Source: Protoeuglena noctilucae
Lineage: Eukaryota
Length of the DNA: 64,000 bases
Direction of reading: 5' to 3'
Assembly (NCBI GenBank): GCA_958009085.1
Contig: OY253669.1
Span: 1,426,001 to 1,490,000, forward strand
Part shown: positions 5,135 to 64,000 of the stretch, piece by piece
Layout of the letters: the number at the start of each line of letters is the position of its first letter
Position numbering within the stretch: the first letter of the stretch is position 1
The notes under the pieces: generated by a model
What the model was told of the DNA's origin: nothing
Databases searched by the model: none
The model's input: only the letters and a program-made list of their open reading frames with translations
Made by a program: the position numbers and the translations under genes

Positions 5135-7009
5135 ATGAGTTCGGCATCCCCGGGCGCCACGGGCGCTCGGCGGACAGCTTTCGCCGGGTACCCATCAGAG
5201 TCGTGGAGGGTTGATCTGGCAGCTGTGCACCGCGTTCGGCGTGGCGTGCGGTCCTGCGCGACGTGGCACGACACGCACGCGAGGGAAGAGCGTCTCCGCA
5301 TCAAATCGGACGCCGGGGATCCACCTGTCGTCAAGGCAATCAGGGACGGGGACGTGAAGCTGGTTCAGGAGCTCGTCGACCACGGCGCGTCGCTCGGGCA
5401 GTTTGGGGAGCTTCGGTAAGTTCGCATTCTTTGCTGCGTCCCTCTACGTTCGTTTTGACCCACACAAACACCTTTTCTTCTCGCCCTCTCCTTCTCTGAC
5501 TGCTCCTTTCTACGCTCCTTCCCTCTGCTTTCGTCCTGCTCCCAGAACGACGCCCCTGCACGTCGCTGTGGAGATGCGTCAGCTCGATGTGGTGGAGTTC
5601 TTGCTCATGCGCGGGAGCGGACCCAACGTCTGCGACGTGAGCCTCGCCCGGCCCATCCAGGTGCGCGCCAGCTGCCTCAGCTGCTTCAGTCGTCAGTCAA
5701 TCCTCCCTCGTCTGTTCATTGCTCGCCACCCATGATTCTGTCAAGTCGCACCTGCCCCAGGTGGCCTTTCGGGCGACGCCCATGGAGAGGCAAGCGTTCC
5801 GGCAGCTGCGCCAGGCGGTGGAGGACGTCTGCCGCGACGTGCCCGTCGCGCACCTCCTGCGGCCCGAGGAGTGGCCGCCGCACCGGCCCCGCAGCGCGCT
5901 GGTGCGGCCCAACTGGTGCCGCCGCATCGAGGGTTTCCCCGTGTCTGGCCCCACCCGGGCGCTGACGGCGGCCGTGGCGGAGCGGGCGGTGTCGCGCCTC
6001 GACCCCGTCAGCCAGGCGGTCGTCCGCATGCACCAGTGGATCGTCGAACTGCTGCTGGAGGCGAGTAGCCTGCTAAGGCACAGCTCGGATTGGCGCCGAT
6101 GCCCACACCCGCTCTCGGTCGGTCGCATCTGCGCACCTTGGATCTGCCGTTGGTGGATGCGACCTGCCCGGTGACCTGCCTGGTGTCGCAGGCCGGGGCT
6201 CAGCCCAACTGCACGACGTCGCCTGCGACCATGTACGAGACGGAGAATCAGGACATGCTGCTCCACACGGCGATCGAGGCGGGGCAGCTGGGGGTGGCCC
6301 TGTCGCTGCTGCTGCACGGCGCCAGCGCCAGGAACCGCGGGCGGCAGGAGATGCCCCTGCACCTGGCCTGCCGCGACGGCCTGGGACCCCTCGCGGTCGG
6401 TGAGGCGCCTCTCATTGCAACGCGGCACCTCATGGTCTCATCTCTGGTAGCTGCCACCGCACCTGGGTGCCCACGCCATGCCTGCATGTGTCACCTGCCT
6501 GCCGAGAAACACCTCAGTTCCAATCTCATCATGTACAGGGATGACGTGGTGCTTTCAGTGACGCCGCTCTCATCGCATCCATCCACCTGCAGTTCTGCTC
6601 GAGTGCGGCGCAAGCCCGACGGACTGCTCGTACATGCGCAGTTACACGGACCCTCCCTTCTCATACGGCACTCCTTTCGACTACGCCAACCTGCAGGGGC
6701 ACGCGGAGCTGGCAGGCGAGGCCGCGTGCCGTGTATCGCTCACAGCTGGGTGCCTTGTCTCTGCTCATGGCCCGAACATCGCACGTTGTCAACAGCGCCC
6801 TTCCAAGACCCGCATCTGCAGAGGCCATGCTCTTGGTCGGCGCTCGCTTTGACAAGAACCCGGGTGCGACGTTCGATGAGGCGTTCCGAAGGGCACCTGT
6901 CCCGAGTGAGGACGCTAGGCGTGCTTACCGCAGCGCATGGGAGGCGTACCGGGGCTACTGGCTGCGGCCGGGGTGCGCCGTCGGCGCCAAGGGCACCTGC
7001 GTGTCATGA
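5135..7009 (+). CDS. Ankyrin-repeat protein, C-terminal exons
   Basis: Spliced ANK motifs: PPVVKAIRDGDVKLVQELVDHGA | TTPLHVAVEMRQLDVVEFLLMRGSGPN | IVELLLE|AGAQPN..LLHTAIEAGQLGVALSLLLHGA..MPLHLACRDG..GTPFDYANLQGHAELA|EAMLLVGA; stop at 7009. Confidence 0.8.
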
Positions 7010-7402
7010 CGAAGCGTCTCCTTTGGCTGCGTTGCTTTTGTTTCCGACGTTGGGACTCTGGCACCAGCCACGCCTCACGCATTCCGGACACTCCACTATT
7101 TCTGGTTGATTGGGACGCATACTCTCTCGGCTTGGCTTCCTGTCTTAGATTTCATGTCAATCTACGAATCGCAGAGCACCCCAGGCCCTGGCAGCATCGG
7201 CGGCTCTGCACACTGGCAGCGCTATTGCTTTGCTTGTCCACACACTCTACCCGCCAGGCAGTGGCGAGGCTCTTGAGCAAATCTGCACTTTGAAAATTGG
7301 AACAAGACGCAAGAAAGACAGATGTCACGCATAACAGACGCAGCCGGCAGCTCCATCGATGGCTGCTACCCTCCCAGCGCCTCCTCCGAGCCTCGCGGCT
7401 CA

Positions 7403-8844
7403 TCATCCCAGCTTCACGCACACGCGCTCGGACGGCAGCGCGTCCCGCTCCCTCTCCGCATCCGCCGCGCCCCTTCTCATCTCGTGGTGCGTGGGCACCT
7501 CGCAAGGCACGCCCTGGGCACTCCACCCGCACCGCGCACAGCCCCACACGCGCCGCTCCTGGGTCCCTGCCGGGCCCTCGCATCCCTGGGTGCCAGAAGG
7601 CAGAGAGACAAATGAGCATTGCATTTCTAAACCAAAAACGACCAGAGAGACACCGGTTATGTTGAGCGCCATTGCCTAGTAACTAGCTTCGCGCATAGTC
7701 ACACCTTGAGCTGCCGGATGGCCCTGGCCGACTCCTCGTCTGGCACTTTGACCCCCCGCTCGTGCACCATCTGCGGCTCAGGGCGGTACTTGACGCACAC
7801 GCGACGGGACGCGCCGCCCGCCACGTCGTGGGTGGGGTGGGCGCACGGCTGGCCCTTGTCTGCCCACCCACACCCGGCGCAGCCCCACGGGCGCTCCTCC
7901 GTCGTCCCGGGCGGGCCCGCGCAGCCCTGGGGAGCACAGAGACACGGTGACGGGGTGCAGCAGTCGAGTCAACAAGAGCAGTCCGCGAGGTAGAGAGTGA
8001 GGGGCAGAGGACAACGGCAGCCTCGCCAGCACCTCCTTGCAGCTGCACCCGCACATGCACCCGCACCTGCACCGTCCACCCCACCCGCACCCGCACACCC
8101 ACTCATGCTCCCTCACCGGCGGCTGCCGCAGCGTCCACTTCCGGTCCACGACATACGCCTGCTGCGGCCCCAGCCACCGCTCCGCCGGAGCCACCTCCTT
8201 CACGCACACGCGCTCGATCCCCGCACCCTCCACGGCGTTGCCCCGCCGCCGCGCGTCCTCCGTCAGCGCGGGCACGTCGCAGGGCGCCCCGTGGCGCGAC
8301 CAGTGGCAGAAGTGGCAGCCGAACGGCTCGGTGCGACCCCCAGGCGCGCCACGGCACTCCTGCGGGTCATGGCAAGCTTGCTTAAGGTCACATGACGCCA
8401 TGTCGGTGTTCAGTAAGCGTAATTGGGTCAAGTGAGCGTTCCATGCATGCACCCTTCCGTTCAGCCGGGACCCAAACCCTCACCTCGCTCCCATCGGTCC
8501 CATCCCTTTCGCGACACATGCAGGATTCGAACCTCAACCCCTAAAACCCCTCCACCCCCACTCGCCTTGCGCTGGATATCTACGACGCGGTCCACGAAGT
8601 CCTCCTCGCCCTCCCCGTCCTTCCTCTGCACCAGCACCCCCTGCGCGTGCACCCACACGTTGTCGCGCCCCGCCCTGACCTTCTCCTCCTCCACCTTCAG
8701 GCACACGCGGCGGGAGGGGCCGCGGTAGCCGGGGTCCTCCACGTGCGTCGGGTCCGCGCAGGGAGTGCCGCGGGCCGTCCACCCGCACCGCGCGCAGCCC
8801 ACGTCCGGGCCGGGGGGGTTGCGCCTCCCGGGGTACCGGCACTC
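7403..8844 (-). repeat. Four tandem exon-encoded Cys/Trp/His protein modules (exons 8844-8566, 8359-8117, 7926-7705, 7585-7403)
   Basis: Each exon starts [E/G]C and contains GCxxCxWxxxGxPCxxP(TH)...RVC[VL]K. Confidence 0.9.
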
Positions 8845-11800
8845 CTGCGGGGGTGGGTTGGGGCGCGTGGGATGAATCCTTCATGAAATGATATCTGGCA
8901 ATTGGCGCTCTGGCGACGGCATTGCCACCACGCGCCATTGCTGGGACGCCCACGCATTGTGACATCCCGCGCCACCCCTTGCTTACCTCGGGCTGTTTGA
9001 AGGCCCACGCCTCCTCCATCGTCCGCACCACCACGCCCCGCGTGCCAAACTTGCGCGGCTGCATGCCCTCCACATACTGGAAAGCCCCCAGGTCCCCCAG
9101 ACCCAGCACCGCGCCCTGCACGTCGCCACGGGCGCTCTTCTTGCTCTGCCCGGCCTGCGGGGTGACAGAGAGGGGACGAAGCGGTCACATGCATGGCGCT
9201 GTAAGGGGGAGTCACAATCATCGTGCTATCGTTTTGCCCACAAATGCTGGGTCACCCTCAGCTCCCCTTGCATTCCTCATACAGACACTCACCGTCACCC
9301 TAACCCTCACCCTCGCCCTCGCCGATGCCTATGCCACATCACACCCTTCTCATACACTCACCCTGGCCCCCATGTGCTGCGCCGTGCCAGGCTCCTTGGG
9401 CCTCATGCCCCCCTCCTCCACCGGCCTCATCTGGCCGTACACCTTGTCCTCCCTCCGCATCTTGGCCATCATGTCGAGATAGAAGGCCCGGCTCTGCACG
9501 CGCTCCTGCCGAGCACGCGGAGCATGGCGGAGTGGGAAGGAGGAGCGACGCAGCACCATGCGTGCAACGCATGATGGGGTGGGAACGAGGGGCAAGGTGG
9601 GAGGGCATCGCAAGGAAGAGCTCATCCCTATGACTGACTGTGGCTGTCGCCAGGCTCACGTCCTCACCCCCCTCAATGACGTCCCCATCGCTTTTCAAAA
9701 AAGCACCCCTCACCTCCCTCATCCGCTCCAGCCGCCGCTCCTCGCGCTGCCCCGCGTCGTCGTAGGCCCCCTGCCGCAGCCTCTGCTTCACGGCGTGTCG
9801 CCTCTTCATGTCCGCACGCGTGCCCTTGGGGCCCTTCCCCTCGCCCTCCTCAAACGCCCGGAGCATCTGCAGCACCTGCGATTTGAGGAGAGCAAAGGGT
9901 GATACTCACAAGCACGACTGGGGTAGGAATGGCACACGAGAGCCAGTCAAGCACCACTGTGCACGAACACCCGCCCCTGCATGCCTCTCGCCCACACTAG
10001 CTGCGTGCCAGTGCTAGGGATCGGCAACAGCACACCACCCTTGCAAGGTCTCGCCTTCTTGTCCCTCGGCGCGACCTGCCTCAGCCATGCCGGGTCTTGC
10101 GTGCGCACGCGGTTGAAGACGGTGGGGTCGCGGAGGATGCTCGGGCACAATGCCGCGATGTCCTGCGAATGCCGAAAATGCGCAGCAACGCTGACGGACC
10201 TGGTGTCAGGAGCCTGACAGGGACGCACCGTGACAGACGCGTGTCTGTGCATCGTGACTGACACGCATCTGCGCATAACAACAGCTGCCACGTCTTGGCG
10301 GTCCCACGCACCTGGAAGCACCGCTCATCCTTGCGCAGGAGGTCCAGCACAGCGGAGGGGTCCGACAGGAAGGCGAACCCGCGGGGGAGGTGCGGGGTGG
10401 CGCCCCCACGAGCTGACCGGCGCGGCGAGGCGCGGCCGGGGGAGCCACGGGCGGTGCCCTCCTTGGCGGGCGGCCGCTGGGCTGCCGCGACGACTTCGAG
10501 GAACTGGTGACGGTCCTCCCTGCAGCGATGGGGAGGAGGAGGGGCAAGATGCGCGGTGGTGGGTGGCGTGGGGCAAAGGGCAGGAGAGGAACGAGAGGGG
10601 GAGCAGGAGGAGTGAACGCAGCGTTGTTAGGGAGACAGCATATGCGGGTGCATGGATTGGGAAGCGCAGGTGCGGAGAGCGCAGCGTGGCACTGCAGCCC
10701 AGCCCCTCGCGCCGTCGTCAGTCACCGGTACAGTGCGACCATCGCGTCCACGTCCTTGACTCGCGGGTAAGGCCACCGCGCGTCCCGTCTCGCAAAGACC
10801 ATCGACGCGTGCGCCTCCTTCCGGGCCTTGCGCGCCGACGGGGCCGGGCCGTGGCCCTCCCGCAGGTCCCGGCAGCGGTGGCACCTGCGTGAGACGCCGT
10901 GCGACCGCGTGACATGAGATGGATTGGCACGAGACGGGCTGGTCGACGCGAGGCGAGGGTCCAAAGCTGTGCGTCTTGGTCACTCACCGGCCGTCCGCCA
11001 AGTGCCACACCCATGCAATGCCTCTTGTCTGTCATCACTCACCGGCAGTCCGCCAGGTGGAACTCCTCTGGCACGGTGCTCCGAAAGGGGTTGGCTGCTT
11101 TGACCTCCGCCAGCTGACGCTCGAATTCCCCGTGAAGGCGGCGGAAGTCGGGGACGGGGGTGGCGCGGAACTCCGCGGGGCGCGCTGCGGGGGGGGCGGC
11201 GGGGGCAGGGCTTGAGGTGGTGGTGGGGCGGGGGCAGGCGTGGCGCTGCGGGGGTGGGAGGCGAGGTTCAAGGGTGCAGGTGAGGGCGGGAGTGGCACCA
11301 AAGGGTTCGTGGACTGTAAAAAAATGATATAGTTGCATGACCGAGGACGCAGCGTGCAGCCAGAGCCGGTTGTATCCATGGCAGCGGTCATCGCGTTCAC
11401 ACAGTGAGCACCCTCCACTCCTCTCTCACCCCGCTGGTGCGGCGCGGATGCCGGCCGGCTCTGCCTCCTCCTCCTGCTGCGATCTGAGGCTCTCTGCATG
11501 CGCTGCGGCATCTGGGCCTCCTCCAGCAGCTCAATCGCCCTCTGCAAGTGGGGGCGATTGAGGCATCGCGTGGGTGCGAGTGCAAGTGAGGAAAGAGGTG
11601 CAGCGGGGGTGCGGGTGCGGGTGCGGGTGTGGACGCGCAGGTGGGTGTATCGGTGCAGGTACAAGTGCGCTGCGTTCATCCCAAAAATGCGAGGACGGTG
11701 CATGTGCGTGTGCAAACACGCATGCGCCTGCGTGTGCAACTCCCCCCCTCGCCTCTCGCAGCTTGGCCTTGCGCCTCTCCATGTCGGCCATCATCGACTC

Positions 11801-14800
11801 GAACCGCTCTTCCTTGACCGACAGCGGCACGGGGGCGGCGCGGAAGGGTCGCTGGAATCGATTGGGGTCCCTTGCCCGCCTGGCCCACTCCTCCCTCTGC
11901 CTCTTCCTCCACTTGTCCCGTTCCGCGAACGAGAAGGGCTGCTGGATTGCCTGCAGCCACGCCTTGCCCCGCTCCACCGCCTCCTCCCGCCGCGCCTCCT
12001 CCTCCGCCAGGATGGCCTCGTAACGCGGCTGCGGGAGAGGGACGGGATGCAGCGCAGTGAGTGGGGAGGGGGTTGAGGGGTGTTGGGGGAGTACAGGAGG
12101 GGCTGAGCGAAGGAGCAAGAGGGGCGAACAAGTGGCACAGCACGTAACAGGGAGCCTGCCTTGCCCCTCACCTCTACGGTGGACTGCGGGAGGGGGTTAG
12201 CCCGGAAGCAGTACGCCCTGGCTGCTTCCTCCTCCTGCCTGCGCAGCTCCAGGTCAAGCTCCATCTTGATCGTCGAGAGGGGCTTCCCTGTATGGCAGAG
12301 AGAGGGTCGAGGTGGTGGTACCATGCTGATGACATGCGGGTGCTGGCGGGTGCGGCTGTGCAGACGCTCGCGCGCGAGGAGGCAGGGTTTACGTAACCAA
12401 CCGCGTCTCGCCTTTCGCGCGGGAGTCGAAGCTGAAGGGCCTGGGCACCGTGGGCGGGGGCGGCTCGAGGGAGGCGGTGGAACCACGCACGAGGCGCAGG
12501 CGGCTGTTGGGGCCGGCCCCGGAGTGGTCGATGTCGATCTTCGGGACGTGCTCTGAGTAATGGGGGACGAAGCGGCCTTGCAGCACCGCCTCGCGCTCCT
12601 CGGGGGAGAGCAGGTCTGCGGGGCAAGGGGGATCGGGGCACGGGGGTTGAGAGGGAGTGGTGGTTGGGTCAGGGACAGGGGTGGAGGGGACGGGTGCCAG
12701 TGGGGCAGTGCGGACGGGTGAGGGTGAGGGGCTGAGGGAAGGAGTGCATGTGGCGGGGTCAGGACCGAGGAAGAGCGGGCAGGGGATGAGTCCTACCTGT
12801 GCCACTGACCGATCACCACGCTTCACGCATGCCATTCCATTCCACTCGACCATTCCACCCCACTCACCAATGACCTCATCCAGCGCGTCCCCGATGCGTG
12901 CCTCCTCTGCACCACCGTGGTCCTCCTCGTGCGCCGATGCCCTGGCGCTGACCGCCCGCCTGTGCCAGGTCGTGGGAACGACGTGGTCGTGGCCGATGTT
13001 CCGGCGGTACTCATCCATCCACTCGTCCTGGGCCTGCCACGCCCGCTCCAGGCCCTCCATGGCCCTCGCCTCCTCCTCCATCATCGCCATCACCTGCGAT
13101 GCGCCAAGAGGATTTCCACATGTCGAGCCAGCCACTCAAAGGCAGCCATGGGTCGCTGTGACTGTTACGGTGGGCGGCACTTGCGATGCTGCTGAGGGAG
13201 AGGCTCTCACCTTCATCCTCTCCTCGTCCTCTGGCGTGCCCTTGCCCCGCTTCCTGCCCTCCCTCTCCAGGTCGCTGTCGTACCCGCCCTCCTCGAACCG
13301 CCGCTGCATCTCAAAGGCAAGCTGGCTCAGGTGCTCCTGCCGCCGGCGCTCGTCGAAGCGGCCCGTGGCGATCGCGAGCTCCTCCTCCGTCTGCGTGACA
13401 GGGAAGCGAGGATCAGGGACACGTCCAGCGACCGTCAAGGTTCAGGACGACCGCCAAGACTGTAGCAGGGGCGAAGCAACACATCTCAGCTGTCCCACCA
13501 AGGCAGGAAAGCGACGGGTCAAGGACACCTGCTTAAGTGGCGCAAACGCCACCCGCCCAGCCGCCCCCGGGCACCCTTGCCACTCACCAGCGCGGTGCGC
13601 CCCAGCTCACGCGACCTCCGCACCGCCTTCTCGAGGCCCTCCGCCATGCCCAGCGCCACCGCGTCGATCTCGTGGACCGTGGCGTCGAAGGGACTCCCGC
13701 GGGGCCCGCGGCCCCGGCGGTGCGCGTGGGGCCGACCCTCGGTGTGGGGCGGGTCGGGACCACGCTCCTCCACCGACGCCGACCGTGCCGGCGGGGGTGA
13801 GCCCCACGTCACCCGCCCGTGGGGCGGCTGCGGAAGGCTGCGTCCGACGGCGCCTCTGCCCCCTGGCGCGCCGCCCTGTGCCAGCGACGTCGGCGACGCG
13901 GGCGCTGGCCTCGGGCCCGCCCACGCGGCTGCAGGAGCAGCGCCGGGGCCGGTGCGCCCGGGCGACGGCGATCGGGCCGCAACGGGCGCGTCCCAGGACG
14001 CGTTCTCCCAGGACCCTCGCGCGCGTGCACCCTGCTGTTGCGGGCTCGACCGCTCTCTGCCATCCCGCTCAGGGCCACCAACTCCCTCATCCCGCCCTCG
14101 CTGCGAACGCGGCGGCGTCCATGCGCCCCGCTTCGCCTTCGCCTCATCCCCCTCAGCCAGGTGCACGTCAGGGTAGCGTGGGTCGGACGCCACGTCAACG
14201 TTGGGGTAGCGAGGCGACCTGTCCCCGCCCCCGGCGTCCACAGAAGGGTAGCCGCGGCGCCCGGCGGGGTCGCGGCCGCCGGAGACCCGCGTCGGGGGCG
14301 ACGGAGACCTCGATCGGGAGGCGGGCGGGTGGTGGTGTCCCTCTGCGTGGTCCCGGTGCCGTCCGTCTGAGTGACCGTACCCGCGGGGCGGTGACCCGTA
14401 GGGGCCATGGGCGTGTGCGTCCGCATCGGGCACGCCGTACTCGTTCTCGCGCAGTCGGCGGCGGGCCTCGTCGACCGCGGACTGGATGGCGGCGGGGTCG
14501 GCGTGGCCGGCGCGGCGCTGGGGGGCGACACGCCCGGCAGAGTGGTAGTCGGCCAGGGCTGGGTCCGGGTGGTACCCCGAGGCGTGGTGCGACACGGAGT
14601 CCATGCGGCTCTTGGCCACGTGGGGCGTGGTGGCGGGGCGGACGGGCCGCAGCGTCGCCGGCAGCGGTGCAGGCCCAGTGGTGGGCTTGGCGGGGCTGCG
14701 GAGGGCGGCGACGGACGCGGACGACGGCCGAAAGGAGAGGGACTGTGGAACGGCGCCGGCCGTGTACGGCATCGAGGCGTCCGTGGCAGCCTGAGGGTTA

Positions 14801-17800
14801 TGGGGGAGCACTGCGGTCGCAATGTCAGCGCCAGCCACGTGGGGCAGCACATCACAGGCGATGCCGTGGACAGTGGTCGTGCGATGCGCTCACCTGGGCA
14901 GCCTGGATGGCCGTCTCAGCCCGGCGCGCCACCGAATCCATCAAAGCCCGCCACCCCGTCGCAGTCGCGTGCTGCGTGTGCAACGACAACAGCAGGCCTT
15001 CTAACCCGTCCGCCCGCCTTGGTAAGCATCAACACCACGCCCATTCATGTCCAGGGGTTCTAACAACATGTGCCGCCGAGCAAGTGCCCCCCCTCACCTT
15101 GTCTGTCGTGGCCACGCGTTGGAGCGTCACTCGGGCGGCACCTGCGCCCGTGAGCCCCTCCCTCCGTGGCACGCGGGCCGCCGCCGTGGACGACCGCTTG
15201 CCCGCACGCCTCGACTCCCCCAATTCCGGGGCGTTGTGCACGCGCTTGGCGAACTCCCTGTCCCGCATGCGACGCTGACGCTGCATGGGGGGCGCTGGTG
15301 CGTCACTCTTGCCAGCCATCGGCACGACCATTTGAAATGGTCAGTGCATCGCTCTATGCGACCGTATCTGCGCATCTGCACGCGCTCCCATCGCTCATAT
15401 GTCATGCGAGATGCATGCTCATGTTTGCATTTGTGATCCGTCGACCACCGCCTGGGTCCTTGCCTTCTCTTCCGCTTGCTGCTCGAGCTCCGCGCGCGCC
15501 CGCTCGTGCATTAGCATCTCCCGCTGGTGCCGGGTGTGCAGGAAGTGGTCGTCCGCCTGCGTCAGAGACCGAGGGGGACAGGATGAGTCGGTTGCTATGA
15601 TAACTACGATTCCTGTTCGTGTCGAGACACGTCAGGCGAGGTGCTATGTGAGCAGTTAGATTACATGCCACATGCAAGCAAGTGGATGCGTGCAAAGGAT
15701 ACAGCGAGCGCCAGCGTCGCCCCAGCCACCGCCATGCCTCACCAGCGCGGGGTGCAGGGCGTCGAAGGACATCTGCACCGGGGCGAGCGCCTGCACCTCT
15801 CGCGTCCCGCGCCGCGCCACGCTCGCTATGCTCTTCTGGCCTGTTAAGTGGTCCCCGTAGTTGTCCCTCTGGCCAGCCAGGTGGTCGGCGTAAGCGTCGG
15901 GCTCCTCGTGAGCGCGCATCGCCTCCTTTGCCACATCGTAGAAGCGACTGCCCGCCACGTCGCCGAAGTCACTGTACTCTGACTCGTCCGCGGGCGTGCG
16001 TGGACGTGCCCCATGGGAATCCAGTTGCATGGAAGGAGCCACGGCCCTCGCTTGGCCGACGCGGGCGTTGCGCTCCGTGGCAGGGGCGTGCCTGTCCGCA
16101 GCAGGGGCGTGCCTGTCCGCAACAGGGGCGTGCCCGTCTGGAGCATGGGCTTGCCGGCCCTCCATGCGGCCCAGACCCACGAGGTCCTGCTTGTCGCTGT
16201 CTGCACGGCCCTGGCCCCTCACAGGGTCAGCTCTCGGCCCGGAACCCCGTTCCCTCCTTCCATCGCCACCACCCGTCTCCTGCTCCCCACCCCCGCGCTC
16301 CCTCCTCCCATCGCCACGACCCGCCTCTTCCGGCGCCGCGGCCCCTTGTACCGGCCTGCGTGCATCGTCCCTCTCCCCGCCCCGCTCGCCACGATGCCCC
16401 TCAGCGGCGGTCGCTGGCGCCGCAGAGCGAGCGTCCGGCCCCGCGCGAGGGACAGGGCCCACAGCCTGCTCATCGCGCCGATGCGCTCCCCCCGCGCTCG
16501 CCGCCTTGTGCCCCCGCGCGGGCAGCGCTCCGGCCACCGTGGGCGCCGCGAGCGGTGCCGGCTCGTCACGCGCCCGCACGCGGCCAGCGGGCCCCTGGGC
16601 ACTCGGGACCCTTGCACCCGGCGCATCCCGGGCTGGCCCACGCACCGCGTCGCTCGAGTATGACAGCGAGTCAGCTGGGGACCCCGCACTCGGGGAGCCC
16701 TGCCGGGACTCGCGCCGGCTGCTGCGCCGGGCGCCAGACAGCGACGTCCGCGGCGCCTCCCGGGCCACGCCCCTGCCCTGCGGCGCGCCCTCTGCGACTG
16801 CCGGGGCTCGTGCGGCGCCACCCTGTGCCGGGCCCACCTGCTTTCGGACGTGCTCGGGCGCCTCCTGCGGCGACGGGGTCACGTCTTCCGACACGCTCAG
16901 GTCCACCCCGCTCGTTGCCGGCTCAGGGGTGCCCGCATGCGCACCGGGACTCACGGCGCGCCCAGCAGTGGCAGTGGCAGCGGACCCGACCCGCGCGTCG
17001 GCCCTGGCCTGCGCTCCTCCCGCAGCATCCTGCGCCTTTGCCGCAACGCCCTGCGCCCCTCCCGCGACGCCCTGCGCCCCGCCCTCGCCTCCTCCAGTCG
17101 CCGCGCCATCGACGTCACCCTTTGCATCCGTAGGCGCCCTCGCAACCTTGCCCATCGAATCTGCGGCCTCCGCACGCGGAGCTCCACCGGCTGCCGGTCC
17201 CGCAGCGGACTCCTTGGCCTTCTCACCGCTACGCTCTTGCGTAGCTCCAGGAACCACCGCCTCCCCCGCACGGTCGCGGCCTGTTGGGCCCTGAGCCGCG
17301 CCGGCCTTGTCCGCGCGTGCCTGGCTCGCAACAGCCGAGCTCGCGGCACCTTGCGGTACCTCTTTTACGAGCTGATTGGATGCCCATGCTTCCGATACCT
17401 TCCCACCCTTGCCACCCACAGGCGCGTCCGCCCCTCGTGCCCCCTTCCCGCTCCCGCCATTGCCGCCGTGGCTCGGCCCACCCGGCTCATCCTCCGAGTC
17501 TGACAGACCTGGGATGTGATACTCGCCACGGCCGCTCACCTGCCCCGGGCCACCAACCCCAGCCGTCGGCGGAGCCTTTGTCTGTCCAGCCGCAGCGGCT
17601 GGCACCTCCCTGGACCCTGCCGCGCCGCCGTCCGTGCCCTGCCGCTCGCTCTGCCTGGACTCAGGGGCGTCATCCTCGGAATCCGACAGCCCCGGGATGT
17701 GGTAGCCTTCGCGGCCACCCGCAGGCGCGACGCCGTACACCGGTGCCGTCCCAACGGTCGACGCCCGGGGTGCCTCCCCTCCCGCAGCCGCGCCCCGGCC

Positions 17801-19923: not shown

Positions 19924-20335
19924 GGCTACAGAGGTTTGAATGTCGCCTGCGACGGGCGACCCCACCGCGGTCAGATGCCCCCCGAACGGAGCCGCAAACA
20001 CGCAGTCGAGATACCACAGCCAGAACTGCGACGATTGGGCAGGCAGCACTTCAGCACATGCGCGGAGGCCCGCTTCACCATGTTGCTTGCGAGTCAATTT
20101 GTTCGGCGACTTCAGCGACTCCGAGCTCGCGTGGGGGTGGTACTGCACTTGATGAGCGTCAAATAGCGAGGGGGGACACTGCTAGGCCATTGATATACCC
20201 TCCACGCAATGCAAGTATCGGGTTAACAGCGCAGATGCATCTGACCAAGAGGTCGAGGCGAGAGGAGGTGAGAGCTGTGAACTAGTGCTGCGGTAGTCGT
20301 GAAGAAACTCTTCCACTCGGACCTCTCTCGCCACC

Positions 20336-21470
20336 ATGGTCGCACTCATGGGCGCCCTTGTGTGCCCCCCTGCTGCCCGCACCTGCCATCCCGCGGCGAG
20401 CATGTCTTCCCGGGCTGCCATCAGCAACTCCTCAGTGTCGCTGAGGGCGTTCGTGCCCCGGGTTCGCCCGGTGGCGGCCTCCCGGGCCCAGCTTCGGGTG
20501 GCCGCGAGCGCGGAGGACATCAGCTACGTGATGGTCAAGCCGGACGGCGTGCAGGTGACGCATTTCTCTGTGTCGTGCAGCCATCCGTGCATGCAGCGGC
20601 CCGGCATCGCCCTCAGCTCGCTAGTTCTCGGGCCGTCAGCGTCAGCCAGGAGGTCCGATGTCGGCGGTCGTGCGGCCTGGCGCTCTGTTCCCAGTGGCGA
20701 TGGGCTTGCATTGCAGTCTTCTGATCGCGACGCGCGCGAGTGCCCCTGGCGCGGTCCCTCGACGCCGGGGCAGCCGGCTAACTCAACACCCGTCTCGCCG
20801 CGCCATTTGCTGACCCGAACGACGCTGGTCGCATGCATGCATGTTCATGGCGTGCAAAACAGCGCGCTGCTTTGCTCCGCGCGTCGGGATACCTCGAGGC
20901 CGTGTGGCTCGGCCGACCTGTGACGCGACCGTTCCAGCCACCTTTTCTGCAGCGTGGCGTGGTGGGCGAGATCATCAGCCGCTTCGAGCGCAAGGGTTTC
21001 CAGCTCAAAGCTCTGAAGCTGTACCAGACGCCTCGCGAGGTCGCGGAGGAGCACTACAAGGACCTCAAGTCCAAGCCTTTCTACAAGGCGAGTGGTGCGG
21101 GGTGGTGCAGATCGTTTGCATCGCCATCCACACGACACGCGGTGTGTATGGACGGCACACCAACGCAATGGGGCCACGCGCGCAGGACCTGGTGGACTAC
21201 ATCGTGTCGGGGCCTGTCGTGTGCATGGTGTGGGGCGGCCACGGGGTGGTCAAGTCCGCGCGGCTGCTGATCGGGGCCACCAACCCGCTGGAGGCGGCCC
21301 CGGGCACCATCCGGGGGGACCTCGCCGTCGAGGTGGGCCGGAACGTTGTCCACGGCTCCGACTCGGACGAGAACGCCGTGCGGGAGATGAACCTGTGGTT
21401 CGAGGACAGCGAGGTCATCGCCTGGAAGCCTTCCATGATGCCGTGGCTGAGGGAGGAGGGGCGCTTCTAA
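20336..21470 (+). CDS. NDK: Nucleoside diphosphate kinase, probably plastid-targeted
   Basis: Ser/Ala/Arg-rich N-terminus, then [78 protein letters not shown], with the catalytic His. Confidence 0.97.
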
Positions 21471-22752: not shown

Positions 22753-22836
22753 TAGACTTGCGCAAGCAGTCTAGAGGCGACCGAGACGCGCCCCTCCTAT
22801 AGCAGGCACAGCCGCAACGCATTGCAAGCGAAAGGA

Positions 22837-51800: not shown

Positions 51801-54800
51801 CTCCTGGCCAAGCTCCACGAGATGGGTGAGGCAGGCTGTTGCGACAGTGCATGGGCGGCCCTTCGGAAGCTGACTTGGGGCACCTGTCATCTAACTGCCA
51901 AGCATCGCTTTTCGCCGCCATCGTCTCTTCGTAAAATGCGTCGTTTGCACGTCTCACACCCCGCACTAGGACAGCACACCGTATCTGCCGTCTGAGCGTC
52001 TCGCCCTTCATACCTCTTGCACAGATGTGGACGCGTTTGTGGGGCACAACATCAGCGCCTTTGACCTCGACATCCTCCTCCACCGCCTCGCCAAGCTCAA
52101 GGTCCCTCTGTGGAGCCGCGTGGGCCGCCTGCGCCGCGCCCGCGCCCCGTCCCTGTCGCCGTCGGGTGGCGGGGCCTTTGGGGGTGGCGCCAGCCACGGC
52201 GTCATGCAGGCAGTGGCGGGTCGCATCATCTGCGACACTTACCTGGCCGCCCGCGAATTCCACGGCAAGGAGGTCGACTACACGCTCCGCACGCTCGCGC
52301 GCTCGCTCCTGGGCGAGTCACGACCGGACGTCGACCTCTCGGACCTCCCCCGGCACTACGCCAGCGCCCGCGCCCTGCTCGACGTGCTCCGGTCGTCCGT
52401 CATCGACTGCCGCCTGGCCCTCGGCGTCGCCTTCCACCTGAACGTGCTCCCGCTGACGCGCCAGATTGCGTGTCTGACGGGGCACCCGTGGGCCAGGGTG
52501 CTGCAGGGCAACCGCTCCCACCGCATCGAGAGCCTCCTGCTGCACAAGTTCCACGAGCGGAAGTTCATGCTTCCGGACAAGCTGACCGCCAAGGAGAGGG
52601 AGGCGGAGCAGGGGCGCAAGGGCGGCAAGGGCGGCAAGCGGGGGCGGGGCAAGGGAGCGGGGGCCCAGGGGGCGGGGGTGAAGGACGAGCCGGCGGAGGA
52701 GGGCGCGATGGACGGCGGGGACGTGGAGGGCGAGAGCGACGGGGAGCGGGAGGGCGGGGCGGGGTCGGGTCGCGCGAGGCGCAAGCCGGCCTTCTCTGGC
52801 GGCTTCGTGCTGGAGCCCAAGCGCGGCCTGTACGACAAGTTCATCCTGCTGATGGACTTCAACAGCCTGTACCCCAGCATCATCCAGGAGTTTAACATTT
52901 GCTTCACGACCGTCGCGCGGCCTGCGGAGGGCGAGGCCGTGTCGCTGCCCCCGAGCACCGACGACCCCGCGCCGCTGCCGACGGTGATCCGCGAGCTCGT
53001 GGAGCGCCGCCGGCACGTCAAGCGCCTGCTCAAGACGGAGCGAGACCCCCTCACGAGGCACCAGCTGGACGTGCGACAGCTCGCCCTCAAGATTACAGGT
53101 CCGATGCGAGCAGGGCTGCAGCGCTGGACCTTGGTGGCATTAGGACTGGGTGCAGTGGCTGGCTCCTATGCCCGGCCGCCTCGATCGCTGTTGACATCTG
53201 CCCTCGCCCTCGCCGCAGCCAACTCGATGTATGGTTGCCTCGGCTTCACGTCAGCGCGCTTCTACGCCAAGCCCCTGGCTGAGCTGGTGACGGCGCAGGG
53301 CCGGGAGATCCTGCAGTCGACCAAGGACCTCGTGGAGAGGTCGGTGGGCCTGGAGGTGGTGTATGGCGACACGGACTCCCTCATGGTGTACACGGGTGAG
53401 GGCATGGACAGGCCTTGTTCGATGGCATGGATCTTCTCGTTTCTACTTCTGTCTCGCACCAGAGGCGACGTCATTACACAAAGGCTTTTGCTGCTATTGG
53501 CATGCGAGTTGGCGCCTCTTGGCTCAGTTTAACATCGCTGACTTCGGGTCTCGTCACGTCCTTGGGCCTCGCAGGCAGCGAGGACTTGGTCGCGGTGCGC
53601 AAGGTGGCAGACGAGATCAAGCGCCTGGCAAACAAGCGGTACAAGCTGCTGGAGCTGGACCTGGACGGCATCTTCAAGCGCATGCTGCTGCTCAAGAAGA
53701 AGAAGTACGCCGCGGTGTTGGTCGAGCAAGGGCCGGACGGGAAGCTGACGGAGCGGATCGAGAAGAAGGGCCTGGACATCGGTGAGGAGTTTGCTTGTAG
53801 TCTTATCATGGAGCTCAGCGGGCGCGCCTGCTGCAGCCGTGGCCTGGGTTCAAACGCGCCCACCATGCCGGGCACGCCCCGCAGTGCGCCGCGACTGGTG
53901 CCCGATGGCCAAGGAGGCGGGGGAGCGCGCGCTTGCTGAGATCCTGTCCGACAAGCCGCGGGAGGAGGTCGTGGGCGCGATCCACGCCATGCTGGCGGCT
54001 CTGCGGGCGGACCTGGACGCCAACCGCGTCCCGCTCAACAAGTTTGTGGTCACGAAGCAGCTGACGCGGAGGCCGCAGGAGTACGCGGACGCAAAGAACC
54101 AACCGCACGTGCAGGTGCGGGTCCTGGGAGGGAGCGGAGGCAGCTTGCAGCGCTCCGGCTGTGGCTGTAGGTGGTCGGGGGTCACCGGCGCACATGGGAT
54201 GCTGCCTCTTGCAGGTCGCGTTGCGGCGGATCCAGAAGGGGCGGCTCGGGGGCACGAGTCAGGGCGAGACGGTGCCGTACGTGGTTTGCGTGGGGGTGGA
54301 TGCGGAGACGGGAGCTGTAAAGGGTGACGGCAAGCAGCCCCTGGCGGAGCGCGCTTACCACCCTGAGGAGGTCCGCGAGAGCAACGGCGCGCTCGCCGTC
54401 GATATCGACTTCTACCTGGCGCAGCAGGCGAGGGCCGGCGTGGCTGATGGCTCCTGCAGGGAATCGCTGATCGCGAGTGGGATGGGTGCACGCGTGATGT
54501 GTGCATGCATGGTTTCCAAACCCTCGCTCGTGCAATCGACATTCCTCGTCGACGCCGACGCGTTTCCTGGTTCGCTTGCCCCGCAGGTGCACCCCGTGGT
54601 CTCCCGCCTGTGCACGCACATCGACGGCACGGACCCCGCGCACCTGGCACACCACCTGGGCCTGGACGCGAGCAAGTTCCACGCCAGGCCCGCCGCGACT
54701 CCCTACAGGTGCGGAGCTATGCAATGCTTATGCACGAGCCTGACAGCAACCGTGGCCGTGGCTACAACACTGCCACGCTCGCCACCATTGCGTGACCCTG

Positions 54801-57924: not shown

Positions 57925-60087
57925 ATGACGCAAGACGAGCAGCGCGGGAAGCTTATTGACGCCCCGCTGATCCAGGTGCGGACCGGGAGTTGCAACGTCC
58001 AAACTTTGGGTCTCTCTGCCGCGACGGGGCGCGCACAGCCCCCTGCTGGCCTCGCAGCGCACACTATCGCTACGTTGCGCGCGTTGGGCGGCTGGGACCG
58101 CGAGTTGTGGCCCACGCGCGCACGGAGGGCGCCACGCGCACCCAGACGGTTCCTGGCGTCCCCGCAGGTGCCGCTTGAGAGCCTCAAGCAGACCTGCCGG
58201 GAGCGGAAAGTAGCCATCGATGCTGTGAACCGCGTGCACGACGAGGTGAGCCACGGTGCTGGCCGAGCCCAGCACGCTCTGCGGTCTTTGCGCTGCTGAC
58301 CCGTGCTTCCCTCGTGCGCCCGTCAGATCGCCAAGGCGGGGCCGAGCGATTGTCGGAGGGCCATCGATGACGCCATCGCCTGCCTGGAGAAGGCCAAGAC
58401 CCGGCTGGAGGAGGTGCGACGCCCACAGCTCTTTCGCCCTGCGTTCCATTCATGTGCCCCGCTTCCACGTTTGCTCGTCGCCAACTGCACCCCCGCGTGC
58501 TTCTGCAGATCAAGCGGGCCGAATCGGAGGACATGAGGCGGTGCAGGGCGCGGCTGACACACCTGCGTAACCTTGGCGACTGCCCGAGGGAGGGGACGAT
58601 TGCATGGAACAGGCGCCGCATGGACGTCATACTCGCCGACTACATGCTGAGGCGAGTGCCACGAGGCGTGTCGCGAAGGCGATGGGGTCCTCGACAGGTC
58701 ACTTGCGTGTGATGCGCACAATCTCTACCCCTGCTGCTGAAGGGCTGTGTGGCGAGGCACCAAGGCGCCAACCCCTCTTGAGGCGTTGTGTTCGCGCAGG
58801 TCAGGGTATTTGGAAAGTGCCCAGGCGCTCGCTTCGGACCGGGACATGGAGGACCTGGTGGACCTACGGTTGTTCAGCGTGGCCCACAGCGTGGCGCGGC
58901 AGCTGGAGGCGCGGGACTGCCGGGCGGCGCTCGAGTTCTGTGCGCAGAACCGCGCGCGGCTGAAGAAGAACAACAGCAGGCTCGAATTCCGGCTCAGGTA
59001 AGCCACCTGCGATGGGGCGCTGCGAGGGGGCGCAGCGTCCCGAGCGCTGCGTGCGAGCGCAGCGTACGCTGCAGCGGACGCGGGGCGGCCCTTGCGCTTG
59101 CCTGGTGTTCGCGAGCGTCTACAGTTTCATTCATCGGCTTTTGGGGTGAGATCTCGGGACCTCCCTGGGCGATCCCGGCCACCGGCCCGTGGCTCTTGCA
59201 GGGTGCAGGAGTTCGTGGAGCTGGTGCGGAAGGGGGAGAGCAAGCAGGCCATTAAGTACGCGCAGAAGTACATGGCGCCGTGGGCGAAGGACAACATGGC
59301 GGAGTTCAAGCGGGCGGTGGCAGCCATGGCGTTTGGGCCAGGGACGCCGTGCAAGCGGTACAGGCGAGGGCGCACCGCCGCGATCGGAGACGGCACGGCT
59401 AAGTCGTCGAGCTGTGGAGCGCGCACACTCAACATGCGTACCGACAACCACGTGCGGGTCGTCTTTGCCGCGGACAGGCAAACGAGCGTGCGCGTTGGCT
59501 GCCGGCCCGTGTCGATGCGCCGCACCCCACCTCGCCTGCAGGGATTTGTTCTCCGACGAGGCCTGGCCGCGGCTTCGGAACCTCTTCCTCCTCGACTTCT
59601 ACCTCCTGCACTCCCTCCCGCCCGTCAGCCTTCTGCAGATCCACCTGGAGGCAGGGCTGTCTGCACTCAAGACTCCCGAGTCGTTCCAGCCGGGCTGCAG
59701 CAAGGAGGACCCGCTGCACCTCCCAGCCTTCCAGAAGCTCGCGCAAGACCTCCCCTGGTCCAAGGTAAGAGCTTGGGCGCGGAACGCAGCGCGGCGCGTT
59801 TTGTGCGTCAAGACTGTCGGGCCTTTGGACGCGAGCGAGCATCTGACGTGCTGTGGTGGAGCTTTGCGACTCGTCGGCACCCGCAGCACGTGCATTCGAA
59901 GCTGGTCTGCGCGCTGACACACGAGGTGATGGACGTGGACAATCCGCCGCTGGTGCTCCCGAACGGGCGGGTGTACAGCACCAAGGCCGTGCAGCTCATC
60001 GCGGCCAGGAACGACGGCAACATGGTTTGCCCGGAGACGGAGCAGGTCTTCCCTGCCACCGAAGCAAAGCGCCTGTACATCGTATGA
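57925..60087 (+). CDS. MAEA: MAEA/Gid9 subunit of the CTLH/GID E3 ligase
   Basis: LIQ|VPLESL; LisH region RMDVILADYMLR|SGY; CTLH region ALEFCAQNRARLKKNNSRLEFRLR|VQEFVELVR; AGLSALKTP; HSKLVCALTHEVMD.DNPPLVLPNGRVYS..CPET. Confidence 0.95.
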
Positions 60088-61219: not shown

Positions 61220-64000
61220 GCGCTCGATCTGGGCATCTTTGACGATATCGGCGTTGAGGGGATGCACGTGGACTCGCCGGGGCAGTTGCTCAGGTGGGGG
61301 GCCGCGGCGGTCGGGCGGGGACCCTTTCACTGGCCCGCACCGGCGACCATGTGCAGCTCGTCCCGCGCCCGCAGCGGGCTTCGCAGTGGAACCGGGATTG
61401 GTGATCAGGACCATGATGACTTCATGAAGGACATGTTCTCAACCGGCGCCGGTGAGCTGTGACGCGGACGGGGCTGCTAGCTCGATGAGCGCGCTGGTTT
61501 TCAGATGTGAGACTTTCCCGGGTTCCGGGCCACCGCGCAGAGGCAAACCGACCAGCGGGACAGCGGGCGGCCACAGTGGCTCAGCTCGGGACTGCGGAGC
61601 GCCCGCCCGGCCAGACGGCGGGGCTGGCGGCCGGCGGCCCGGTATCACGCATGCCGACCCTGGCTGAGGGGATCGAGGGCTCTCCCCGGCAGCAGCAGCA
61701 GGGCGACGGCATCCCGCCTCTCTCCGAGCCAGGCAGGCTGCATCTGCCGCCCACCCTGCAGGTAGGACCCCTTGAGTTGGCTTGCAGTGGGTCGTGCATG
61801 TCCCCCCGCACCGCTGATCTGCTGCCGATGGATCTCCTTGCTCATGCACACCCTCGCCCCTCGCGCTCCCTCTCAGGCCTTGCTGGACCCCTCCACCGTC
61901 AGCTCCCACGCTCCCCTCTCCCGCGCCCCCAAGCCTCGCCGCGCCATCCGCTCCTCGTCCCACTTCCGCGGCGTGACCCTCCACTGTCGCACCGGGCGCT
62001 TCGAGGCCCACGTCTGGCACATGGGCAAGCAGATATACCTCGGGGGCTTCGAGACCGAGGACGCCGCGGCCCTGGCGTACGACCTGGCTGCCATCAAGTT
62101 CAGGTGCGCAGGACGCATGTGTCGCATGGCCACACGCTACTCCGTGGCAGCGGCCGAGCAGCGCGATGTTGCATTGCACCAAGCGGCGTTTCCTCCTGCG
62201 CGCTTGCTATTTCTCAGTGCGTCGGCCCAGGCACATGCGCCGGCATCCTGCACCTCGCCTCCTAGGCTCCGCCATCGTCCCCGCCACGACCCTGACTTAC
62301 CCTGACCCTTCCATCTCCCCCACCAGGGGCCGCGAGGCCGTGACCAACTTCTCAATGGACAACTACGAGGGCGAGCTCGCCAACATCCAGGGCCTGACCA
62401 AGGACGAGCTGATCCTCAGCCTCCGGCGCCAGAGCAAGGGCTTCTCGCGTGGGTCCTCCAAGTACCGTGGGGTGACCAGGCACCAGAAGGGCAAGTGGGA
62501 GGCACGCATCGGGTCCCTTGTGGGCAAGAAGTACCACTACCTCGGTGAGAGTCGAGGGCTGAGCTGAGCTGCGAGGCATGCTGGTGTGAGGCGGCGACCG
62601 GCACAGCAAGGCGGTTCTGCCCCATGCCCGGCATCCCTTACAGTCCTGTGCATCGTGCTCAGTTCCTGGCTATTTGGTCATTCACATCCTCTCACCCAGG
62701 CCTGTTCAACACGGAGGTGGAGGCGGCGATTGCGTACGATCGGGAGGCCGTCAAGCAGCGGGGCATCCGTGCGCTGACCAACTTCGATCTTATGGAGTAC
62801 GCCGATCTGCTCAGCCAGCAGGCGAGGTCGCAGCTACGCAGGTTACGCAGCTTGGTGCGAGCTCGCCGGCTCTTGGTCATTCCGAGACACTCTGTGTATG
62901 ACAGTGATTCTATGAAGCTTGATCACAACACTGGATCTGTGATGTTGGACCTGTGAAGGTGTGTGACCCTGGCGGCGCGCAGGACGTGGCCGAGCTCGGG
63001 CGGCAGGGCGGTGGCAAGTACGCCCAGGTCGCGAGCAAGGCGGGGCAGGCCGCGGACGCCATGGTCAGCGTCCCGGTGCTCGACGCGGCCGACGGTACGT
63101 TACCCGTCCCGAGCCCTCAGAGGTGACTGCCACTCCACCCGCAACTTGCACCCATCTCGCTCCGTTCACTGCGGCTCAGCAGCGAGGCCGCGCTGGGAGC
63201 CTCTTATGGCTCAGAAGAGACCCCTGTAAAGCTCGTGTGCGTTGCCCGTTATATTCTTAGCTGACTTTGTGCCCCCCTTCGCGTTCTGGCACGCAGCGAG
63301 AGCCTGGCAGTGATCCTCGAGACGCGGTCGACCCCCTCCGTCAGCGGCACAGGCGACCGTCCCAGCAGCAGCGGCGGCCACCACCTGTCCTCCGGGAGCG
63401 TGGGCCTCGCCCACGGCGCGAGGCAGTCCCCCCACGGGTGAGCGATGTTGCTTTCTGAAACTGGGCTTGCAAGCGACCCGTCGTGCACCATGCCCTTTGC
63501 AGCAGCAGGGGTAGGGAGTCAGGCCTGTGCGTCTGCCGCATCGTTCATCTTCACGACGCTCATTTCTTTTGTCCGCTCCTCGGCTGCAGGGTCAGCCCCC
63601 GCGCCACCAAAGCGTCCCGGCACGAGCTGTTCGGCTTCACGCCGACGGCGCCCGACCTCCCGACCCTGGTCGTGCCTCCGCTGCGGTCCACGAGCCACGA
63701 GCTCCATGCCGACCACTGGGCCGGCATGCCGCACACCAGCCCGGCGCTGCTGGGGCCCCGGGGCTTCAGCTCGCGCGACCGCAGCCCCCCGCCCATGTCC
63801 ACGGGGCCCAACATCCTCCCGCCCCTGCCCCTCGTCATGGCCAGTGGCGTGCTGGGTGCCGACATGCCCTTCTCTTCGATGGCTGGAGGCATCGCCGGCT
63901 CGTCCCCGCTGAGCCACGTCCCGGCCCAGCCCAACTCTGTGCCAAGCCGCCTCATGTCGCGCATGCTCTCCATGCCCACCATCCAGGGCCACATCTCCGC
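61220..64000 (+). CDS. Double-AP2-domain transcription factor (AP2 subfamily); 5' end uncertain and 3' end beyond the window
   Basis: R1 [48 protein letters not shown]; linker [22 protein letters not shown]2 [33 protein letters not shown]. Confidence 0.93.

Follow-up and report, generated by a model that had tools for sequence, protein, structure and literature searches.

High shares of GC-AG introns are already known from several GC-rich algae. In the haptophyte Emiliania huxleyi (65% GC), GC-AG accounts for 56% of 241 curated junctions, which the authors ascribe to GC content (Feldmesser et al. 2014, PMC4028052). The pelagophytes Aureococcus anophagefferens and Pelagomonas calceolata show 14-17% and about 14% GC-AG, respectively (bioRxiv 10.1101/2024.10.30.620910). 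The published cause is GC-biased composition combined with tolerance by the standard splicing machinery (PMC4028052; bioRxiv 10.1101/2024.10.30.620910). Across 121 plants the mean is 1.2% (PMC6310983), and supplementary file 8 of that survey (Pucker & Brockington 2018) lists major non-canonical sites at 8057/114347 (7.0%) in Micractinium conductrix and 7090/124435 (5.7%) in Chlorella sorokiniana, figures not singled out in the available portions of its main text. Chlorella variabilis (67% GC) has less than 1% major non-canonical sites annotated in the same supplement, a low figure that may reflect annotation practice or may mean that GC content alone is insufficient. Marine prasinophytes with sequenced genomes, as tabulated in PMC13213038, carry fewer than one intron per gene. 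Our search of the literature on GC-AG introns with Chlorophyta and prasinophyte names found no published report of a GC-AG excess in a green alga.

The window analyzed here, a 64-kb stretch of the Protoeuglena noctilucae genome, extends the haptophyte and pelagophyte examples to an intron-rich green alga. The organism is a marine chlorophyte, and the window holds ~17 genes with roughly 8 introns per gene and a median intron of 126 nt. The GC content is 67.2% (64.6-73.7% across 4-kb bins), reaching 86% G+C at third codon positions, and GC-AG introns make up ~17-24% of the introns within the window. As in Emiliania, high GC content accompanies a large GC-donor class, an invariant AG acceptor and some GA donors (4% there and one of the 15 listed RNA joints here), although GC donors form the majority in that haptophyte (PMC4028052). 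The pelagophytes, which are marine picoalgae, are similar in rate, high GC content, short introns (103-177 bp), marine habitat and proposed cause, whereas they are stramenopiles with 0.2-0.9 introns per gene and rates taken from predicted models (bioRxiv 10.1101/2024.10.30.620910). M. conductrix and C. sorokiniana are likewise intron-rich green algae (~64% GC) with GC-AG far above the plant mean, but the rate in the window is two to four times higher. Compared with the ordinary plant and animal U2-type GC-AG introns (~1%), the dinucleotides, the AG acceptor and the dependence on a strong consensus are the same, while the frequency is more than 10-fold higher.

A sequence-only reading of this DNA had listed 19 GC donors, and all 19 positions indeed carry GC at intron +1/+2. 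Frame-independent support was obtained for ten of them (RNA for three, donor-blind homology for four, and the MAEA structure, Pfam continuity and a repeated exon structure for one each), and none was refuted. The GC-donor trait of the window is therewith confirmed.

RNA evidence was drawn from contigs of four marine metatranscriptome runs (X1-X4) aligned to positions 5001-25000, with joint classes assigned after ambiguous cut positions had been resolved. The 15 joints listed of 23 comprise ten GT-AG, four GC-AG and one GA-AG; among those listed, usable joints are absent between 7.4 and 20 kb. The four GC-AG joints fit no GT reading. Two lie in an ankyrin-repeat gene (6061..6191, + strand, gag/GCGAGT, and 6716..6821, + strand, cag/GCGAGG), one in a nucleoside diphosphate kinase gene (21088..21185, + strand, aag/GCGAGT), and one at 22140..22229 (+ strand, cag/GCGAGG), which had been absent from the earlier list. 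Each is spliced in both X3 and X4 and ends in CAG; those at 6061, 6716 and 22140 were also called ab initio, and the Pfam NDK profile runs continuously over the 21088 junction (14-58 before it, 59-135 after). Splicing-out from mRNA is seen for these four GC-AG introns, and the remaining sites have homology or model support.

The X1 and X2 contigs are mostly unspliced: they are colinear with the genomic sequence, also over 6061, 8565 and 12411, and the letters at the 6061 intron are identical in both. Because X3 and X4 splice this same intron, we read the unspliced contigs as DNA or pre-mRNA and not as evidence against splicing. Loose contig ends at 8617, 9656, 10207 and 10449 coincide with no predicted exon end.

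The GA-AG joint belongs to a class I fructose-bisphosphate aldolase gene (23586..23688, - strand, cag/GAAAGG; X3 and X4). Neither a GT nor a GC reading fits it, and the Pfam Glycolytic profile is continuous over the joint (21-161 and 163-293).

In the conserved genes, junctions were evaluated with a homology survey that is blind to donor type, weighing GT, GC, GA and GG donors equally and requiring only frame-keeping and an AG acceptor. GC donors were found at 4/19 clear junctions, with a considerable spread between genes: three of five in the TcdA-like (ThiF family) gene and one of 14 in the gene for the DNA polymerase alpha catalytic subunit. With 12 homologues, the TcdA-like introns at 46667..46796 (+ strand, cag/GCAAGT), 47212..47296 (+ strand, acg/GCAAGG) and 48161..48244 (+ strand, gag/GCGAGG) score 305.0, 358.3 and 125.7, compared with 286.1, 346.3 and 117.2 for the best decoys and 273.0, 288.5 and 106.1 for the best GT donors. 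The gene finder picked 47230, likewise a GC donor, over 47212. For the polymerase intron at 54428..54586 (+ strand, cag/GCGAGG), the junction YLAQQ/VHPVVSRLC aligns gap-free to 10 homologues and scores 247.9; the best decoy reaches 234.9 and the best GT 233.9. The polymerase gene is uninterrupted in two related loci, the best of which has 60% identity and 69.6% GC, so orthologous introns for comparison are absent there.

Three further donors have support from a solved structure, a Pfam profile and a repeated exon structure. In the MAEA-like gene, the intron at 58652..58799 (+ strand, gag/GCGAGT) fits the human MAEA structure 8pjn_i gap-free: residue 134 is the last one matched by the upstream exon, the second residue of the downstream exon aligns to residue 137, and residues 135-136 are covered by the split codon plus one residue. 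At 59364..59541 (+ strand, cag/GCGAGG) in the same gene, the Pfam CTLH profile extends across the junction (44-99 and 101-145). The third, at 8360..8565 (- strand, aag/GCGAGT), separates two Cys-rich repeat exons and is called ab initio, 8.0 nats ahead of the best GT alternative; it matches, in position and in phase 0, the GT-donor introns that precede three sister repeat exons.

For the other nine claimed donors the support comes from the ab initio model, in which the margin in nats compares the GC donor with the best GT alternative. On the - strand these are 9876..10054 (aag/GCGAGA, 13.0 nats), 11542..11752 in a FAM161-like gene (gag/GCGAGG, 16.0 nats), 12288..12411 (aag/GCGAGA, 16.7 nats, with an in-frame stop 20 nt past the donor) and 15281..15463 (aag/GCAAGG, 10.0 nats), followed by four in a large membrane-protein gene, namely 33086..33208 (aag/GCGAGC), 35338..35432 (cag/GCGAGG, 11.5 nats), 37257..37412 (aag/GCGAGC, 8.8 nats) and 38753..38843 (gag/GCGAGG, 15.9 nats). 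The ninth, on the + strand, is 62822..62982 in an AP2-domain gene (cag/GCGAGG, 10.1 nats). Within 60 nt of 33208 there are zero frame-compatible, stop-free GT alternatives. A search of 1.84 billion representatives yields just two homologues for the membrane-protein gene, both of them distant. In the FAM161-like gene, the exon upstream of 11752 matches positions 61-145 of the Pfam FAM161A_B profile and a later exon matches 194-233, a spacing that is compatible with the intron, not decisive; a search with the FAM161 exon found nothing, and Pfam matches none of the small flanking exons, even with E relaxed to 10. The model also proposes a candidate GC-AG intron that the earlier list lacked, at 25602..25692 (+ strand, gag/GCAAGC; ab initio only, 25.4 nats), which is kept with a 1% GC prior. 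A Pfam search of 150 raw ORFs from 1-17 kb had a low yield, and an exact 40-base exon search of metagenome contigs returned 0 matches.

Overall, the gene finder predicts 18/19 claimed donors with margins of 8-23 nats over the best GT alternative. It tends to merge neighboring genes and finds 11-13 of the 15 joints seen in RNA; with early settings it gave too many introns (315 and 305) or produced gene-merging chains. In the final set, GC-AG accounts for 23/133 introns; the GC count converges whether the prior starts at 0.5 or at 0.02, and it is 21/129 with a fixed 1% prior. With the +2 letters weighted equally, the calls are 103 GT, 27 GC, four GG and two GA, where, judging by the decoy rates, ~4-6 of the 27 GC calls may be due to chance.

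These data bear on whether the GC donors are merely misplaced, with nearby GT sites in use, or whether the C is an assembly error. GC dinucleotides outnumber GT 2.3-fold (15658 vs 6818), making false GC donors easily drawn at 67% GC, and one GC call of the gene finder proved to be wrong (23586-23748, where the true intron is the GA-AG intron described above). However, the four RNA-supported joints admit no GT reading, the GC option outscores the best GT by 14-70 units at the four sites of the survey, and 17/19 claimed donors survive a prior of 1%. Independent environmental contigs, unspliced over 6061, 8565 and 12411, show 0 differing letters, and none is tabulated for 5001-25000. Such an artefact is thus highly improbable as a general explanation, and for the ten claimed sites with RNA, homology, structure, profile or repeat evidence it is refuted.

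The frequency of the trait can be estimated from the evidence independent of the gene finder. Pooled RNA and homology data give GC donors in 8/34 introns (Wilson lower end 12%), with a probability of 6e-9 for at least eight at a rate of 1.2%, in line with the earlier statement that GC-AG greatly exceeds its ~1% norm. The earlier figure of ~15% among ~120 introns is, if anything, slightly low. AGGCRAG occurs 44 times in the window compared with 25.2 +/- 4.8 in shuffled sequence, and 44 or more were reached in 0/100 shuffles.

The window might nevertheless be atypical, with real GC-AG introns and a far lower genome-wide rate (below ~8%, like C. sorokiniana or Micractinium). The sample is 64 kb with ~17 genes, and the contrast between the TcdA-like and polymerase genes and the Wilson lower bound leave room for such variation. 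Against this, the GC donors predicted ab initio are spread over the whole window and both strands and fall in 10 or more genes, and at a rate of 7% the probabilities of at least 23/133 and at least 8/34 are 5e-5 and 2e-3, respectively. We therefore regard a strongly unrepresentative window as unlikely.

At the 19 claimed sites GC is followed by GAG in 16 cases and by AAG in three (46667, 47212 and 15463), and an exonic AG directly precedes the donor in 18 of them, 47212 having CG, in accordance with the AG/GCGAG or AG/GCAAG pattern originally noticed. The full consensus of A-2, G-1, R+3, A+4 and G+5 is present in 9/10 verified GC donors vs 2/25 verified GT donors (Fisher 7e-6), and in 20/23 GC vs 17/110 GT donors of the ab initio set; mean flank matches, of seven, are 5.8 for GC and 4.76 for GT (Mann-Whitney 1.6e-4). 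Ordinary GC-AG introns, too, reportedly carry a stronger donor consensus, a finding attributed to Burset et al. (2000) and Thanaraj and Clark (2001). A compensating consensus, as the sequence-only reading had proposed, is thus present; it is not confined to the exonic AG, since positions +3 to +5 are also involved.

In the window, tolerance of C at +2 is conditional: GC is about as frequent as GT among donors with perfect flanks and nearly absent among weaker ones. Within the full-consensus class of the ab initio set the GC:GT ratio is 20:17, close to the C:T ratio in intron interiors (0.325:0.201), as expected if a change from T to C at +2 is nearly neutral there.

In other respects these are ordinary U2-type introns. 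An AG 3' end is found in 23/23 predicted GC introns, and the median length is 131 nt, compared with 125 nt for GT introns. U12-type introns were considered and rejected: the donors read GCGAG or GCAAG and do not match /[AG]TATCCTT, and 0/23 GC introns have a branch box resembling TCCTTAAC within their final 45 nt.

Taken together, we consider it probable that the frequent GC-AG introns are U2-type introns under GC-biased pressure, processed by a standard spliceosome in a nuclear genome of 67% GC. GC-biased mutation or fixation would keep converting T at donor +2 into C, and the spliceosome would accept the mismatch only where all other positions pairing with U1 and U6 are good (exonic AG and G-C-[G/A]-A-G). 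If tolerance is conditional in this way, GC donors would pile up in the full-consensus class and be excluded from weaker donors. The perfect-flank requirement suggests that a conventional U1 still pays a price for the mismatch with C at +2. We infer the bias in mutation or fixation from composition alone, and the conventional snRNAs are likewise presumed; a search of the 64 kb with Rfam gave 0 matches, and thus no snRNA gene. The cause published for the other algae, composition plus tolerance, is simpler than an altered snRNA and agrees with the data from the window.

A changed spliceosome, an idea put forward by the sequence-only reading, in which a variant U1 5' end, U1-C or U6 takes C like U at +2 and GC becomes a second regular donor class, seems unlikely by comparison. 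It would account for a rate (8/34) above that of all 121 plant annotations (maximum 8.5%, PMC6310983 supplement), the spliced GA-AG intron hints at a general laxity at +2, and the annotations of some equally GC-rich genomes contain far fewer GC-AG introns. However, if C were paired or ignored at +2, GC donors would have no need of better flanks, yet they have them in 9/10 cases vs 2/25 for GT. An adaptation extending to C and occasionally A at +2, through the U1 5' end or through U1-C, U6 or Prp8 contacts, and defining a second regular intron class, appears similarly doubtful, indeed improbable. If true, it would make this the highest GC-AG frequency yet in Viridiplantae, and the introns could form a tunable class of weak sites for the control of intron retention.

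The main practical import concerns correct gene annotation. With about one-fifth of introns starting with GC and ~8 introns per gene, at least one GC donor would be expected in most genes. A large fraction of gene models would therefore be corrupted by gene finders or aligners that insist on GT or penalize GC at the usual 1% rate. In Emiliania, gene finders expecting GT mis-annotate genes (PMC4028052). The rate in the window stands above every one of the plant annotations in the 2018 survey, and the results support the idea that extreme GC pressure repeatedly drives +2 to C where the rest of the donor can bear the loss.

All 19 donors that the sequence-only reading had assigned to GC-AG introns do carry GC at the proposed positions. 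The next three bases are GAG in 16 of them and AAG in three, and the preceding two are AG in 18 and CG in one (47212). Independent support was obtained for 10 of the 19 and none was contradicted; for the other nine, 62822 on the + strand and 10054, 11752, 12411, 15463, 33208, 35432, 37412 and 38843 on the - strand, the support comes from gene modelling.

Parts of the window are present in four marine metatranscriptome runs (X1-X4), whose RNA contigs were aligned over 5001-25000 and gave 15 spliced joints among those listed. The listed joints all derive from X3 and X4 contigs, the listed pieces of which match the window with no differing letter, and resolving the cut ambiguity leaves 10 GT-AG, four GC-AG and one GA-AG introns. 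Three of the GC-AG introns (6061-6191, 6716-6821 and 21088-21185, + strand) had been claimed, and the fourth (22140-22229, + strand) had been overlooked. We checked whether GT donors are used instead, and no shift inside the ambiguity of these four joints gives a GT. X1 and X2 contigs run unspliced across 6061, 8565 and 12411 and are identical to the window there; therefore, the C at +2, the second intron base, is not an assembly error.

The GA-AG intron (cag/GAAAGG...CAG, 23586-23688, - strand) lies in a class I fructose-bisphosphate aldolase gene, and joints in RNA contigs of two runs support it, as does the Pfam aldolase profile, which continues from 21-161 to 163-293 across it. In the NDK region, one RNA contig leaves the window sequence at 21596 and goes on as a stretch of A, a likely polyadenylation site of NDK. 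A second contig (21599-24116) spans the following + strand gene and enters the aldolase gene, which converges on it from the - strand; either the convergent transcripts overlap at their 3' ends or the contig was assembled as a chimera. In an X4 contig over 21065-21186, 22 other letters stand in place of the 22-23 bases that immediately precede the GC donor of NDK, and the contig then joins the next exon at the unchanged acceptor; it may be the NDK transcript of a related organism or an alternative form.

For the homology survey, full-length homologues were retrieved by single-exon queries, and all frame-keeping, stop-free donor/acceptor pairs within 45 nt of a predicted junction were scored against them, with GT, GC, GA and GG donors given equal standing. 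With 12 homologues of the TcdA-like (ThiF family) gene, the best junction is GC at 46667, 47212 and 48161, exceeding the best decoy by 19, 12 and 8.5 and the best GT by 32, 70 and 20, respectively; it is GT at 47624 and 47854, and one further junction is ambiguous. Pol alpha was scored against 10 homologues: GT is the clear choice at 13 junctions, two are ambiguous and one, 54428, is GC by a margin of 13, its product YLAQQ/VHPVVSRLC aligning without gaps in 10/10 homologues. Taken together, 4/19 clear junctions of the two genes are GC. Single-exon searches further show Pfam profiles that are continuous over 21088 (NDK, 14-58 and 59-135) and over 59364 (CTLH, 44-99 and 101-145). Residues 90-134 of human MAEA (chain 8pjn_i of a solved structure) align to the exon upstream of 58652 and residue 137 to the second residue of the exon after it, with 135-136 corresponding to the split codon and one residue.

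The donor at 8565 ends the first of four tandem Cys-rich repeats (7403-8844, - strand; motif roughly C.G.PG...C..C.W...G.PC..P), and at the corresponding position of its three sister introns, the one leading into repeat 1 and those following repeats 2 and 3, the donor is GT. Each repeat is exactly one phase-0 exon beginning (E/G)C.G.PG, and no Pfam family matches these exons.

The earlier estimate of the GC-AG rate, about 15% of roughly 120 introns, is about right or slightly low: 4/15 (27%) among the RNA joints listed, 4/19 (21%) in the homology survey and 8/34 (23.5%; Wilson 95% interval 12-40%) when these independent sets are pooled. If the true rate were 1.2%, a pooled count this high would arise with a probability of 6e-9, and if it were 7%, with one of 2e-3. 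The motif AGGCRAG occurs 44 times in the window against 25.2 +/- 4.8 expected from dinucleotide-preserving shuffles, none of 100 reaching 44, and AGGTRAG 29 times against 10.05 +/- 3.3, so that the excess is about 19 for both.

An ab initio tally was made with our own two-strand exon-chaining gene finder, which combines a three-periodic Markov coding score with donor and acceptor weight matrices and was self-trained with the RNA-supported genes as a seed. Of the 15 RNA joints it finds 11-13, the GA-AG intron, outside its repertoire, being among the misses, and it matches the homology optimum at 14/16 Pol alpha junctions; it misplaces the TcdA donor 47212 to 47230, likewise GC, and fuses some adjoining genes, such as those of TcdA and Pol alpha. 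When the GC-donor prior is initially 0.5, the finder converges on 23/133 GC introns (17%; Wilson 95% interval 12-25%), and from 0.02 on 24/133. It predicts 18/19 claimed donors. With the prior fixed at 1%, 21/129 introns are still GC and 17/19 claims are kept, the two lost (47212 and 48161) being homology-confirmed. Leaving the +2 letter free among four equal letters gives 103 GT, 27 GC, four GG and two GA donors, and candidate-scaled decoys imply about 4-6 chance calls among these 27 GC. With +2 left out of the score, the GC parse is ahead of the strongest GT alternative at every claimed site, by 8-23 nats. Such margins are no more than supportive, because a false call scored likewise well: a predicted GC intron at 23586-23748, where RNA and the aldolase profile show the GA-AG intron.

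Two other - strand genes deserve mention. A very long open exon of 1282 codons (15743-19588) lies in the 4-kb bin with 73.7% GC; its low-complexity product, with approximately 50-residue Ala/Pro/Gly-rich repeats containing ...TDSEEDTPPPKG..., has no Pfam match. The fusion of this exon with the downstream FAM161-like gene by the gene finder is probably wrong. The second gene (32227-39891) has 22 exons and a strong codon bias, and its product is a multi-pass membrane protein about 1666 residues long. Searching 1.84 billion representative proteins with its 171-residue exon gave, besides the exon itself, just two remote relatives (E 2e-5 and 7.5e-4).

The proposal that the exonic AG compensates for C at +2 is borne out, and +3 to +5 take part in the compensation as well. 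The full consensus (A-2, G-1, then G, C or T, R+3, A+4, G+5) is present in 9/10 verified GC vs 2/25 verified GT donors (Fisher 7e-6), and in 20/23 vs 17/110 of the ab initio set; GT donors are typically good on the exon side or the intron side, GC donors on both. Altered U1/U6 snRNAs or U1-C had been suggested as the basis of the frequent GC donors, an explanation we disfavour since the strict flank requirement counts against it. Rather, a conventional major spliceosome would accept C at +2 only when every other contact is optimal, and GC-biased mutation or fixation would then populate this permissive full-consensus class. Inside the class GC:GT is 20:17, near the intron-interior C:T of 0.325:0.201. 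The GC introns show no U12 features and equal GT introns in length.

G+C is 67.2% in the window (64.6-73.7% across 4-kb bins), and the genes are closely packed with short introns, about eight per gene, vs fewer than one in the sequenced marine prasinophytes of Table 1 in PMC13213038, which rules these out as its source. All relatives of the large Pol alpha exon found by homology search are green plants; the top match has 58% identity and the best named ones are Pedinophyceae sp. YPF-701 (54%), Trebouxia (52%) and Chlorella (about 50%). We read the predicted N-terminal extensions of the NDK and aldolase products as green-type. We take the window to be nuclear DNA of a marine chlorophyte without a close named relative. 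In the two environmental loci with the closest relatives of this Pol alpha gene, L001 (453-3680; 60% identity, 69.6% GC) and L002 (4744-8682; 50%, 63.6%), Pol alpha is a single unbroken reading frame of >1000 codons, vs about 16 introns here; either these relatives have few introns or the contigs derive from cDNA.

The GC-AG mean given for plants in PMC6310983 is 1.2%, and its supplementary file 8, as counts of major non-canonical sites, has its four largest shares in Ostreococcus tauri (173/2044, 8.5%), Micractinium conductrix (8057/114347, 7.0%), Chlorella sorokiniana (7090/124435, 5.7%) and Micromonas pusilla (496/8831, 5.6%). Our literature search, its scope ending short of subscription journals and bioRxiv supplements, found no rate like the present one reported for a chlorophyte. 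Elsewhere, 241 curated junctions of Emiliania huxleyi are described as 56% GC, 40% GT and 4% GA (PMC4028052), the last class being that of the aldolase intron described above, and GC-AG introns as 14-17% in Aureococcus and about 14% in Pelagomonas (bioRxiv 10.1101/2024.10.30.620910); both sources give high GC content as the cause. The window adds a green alga to the known cases of GC-rich genomes enriched in GC-AG introns. Its interest is moderate and mainly concerns gene annotation, and it also illustrates cleanly how tolerance at +2 can be conditional.
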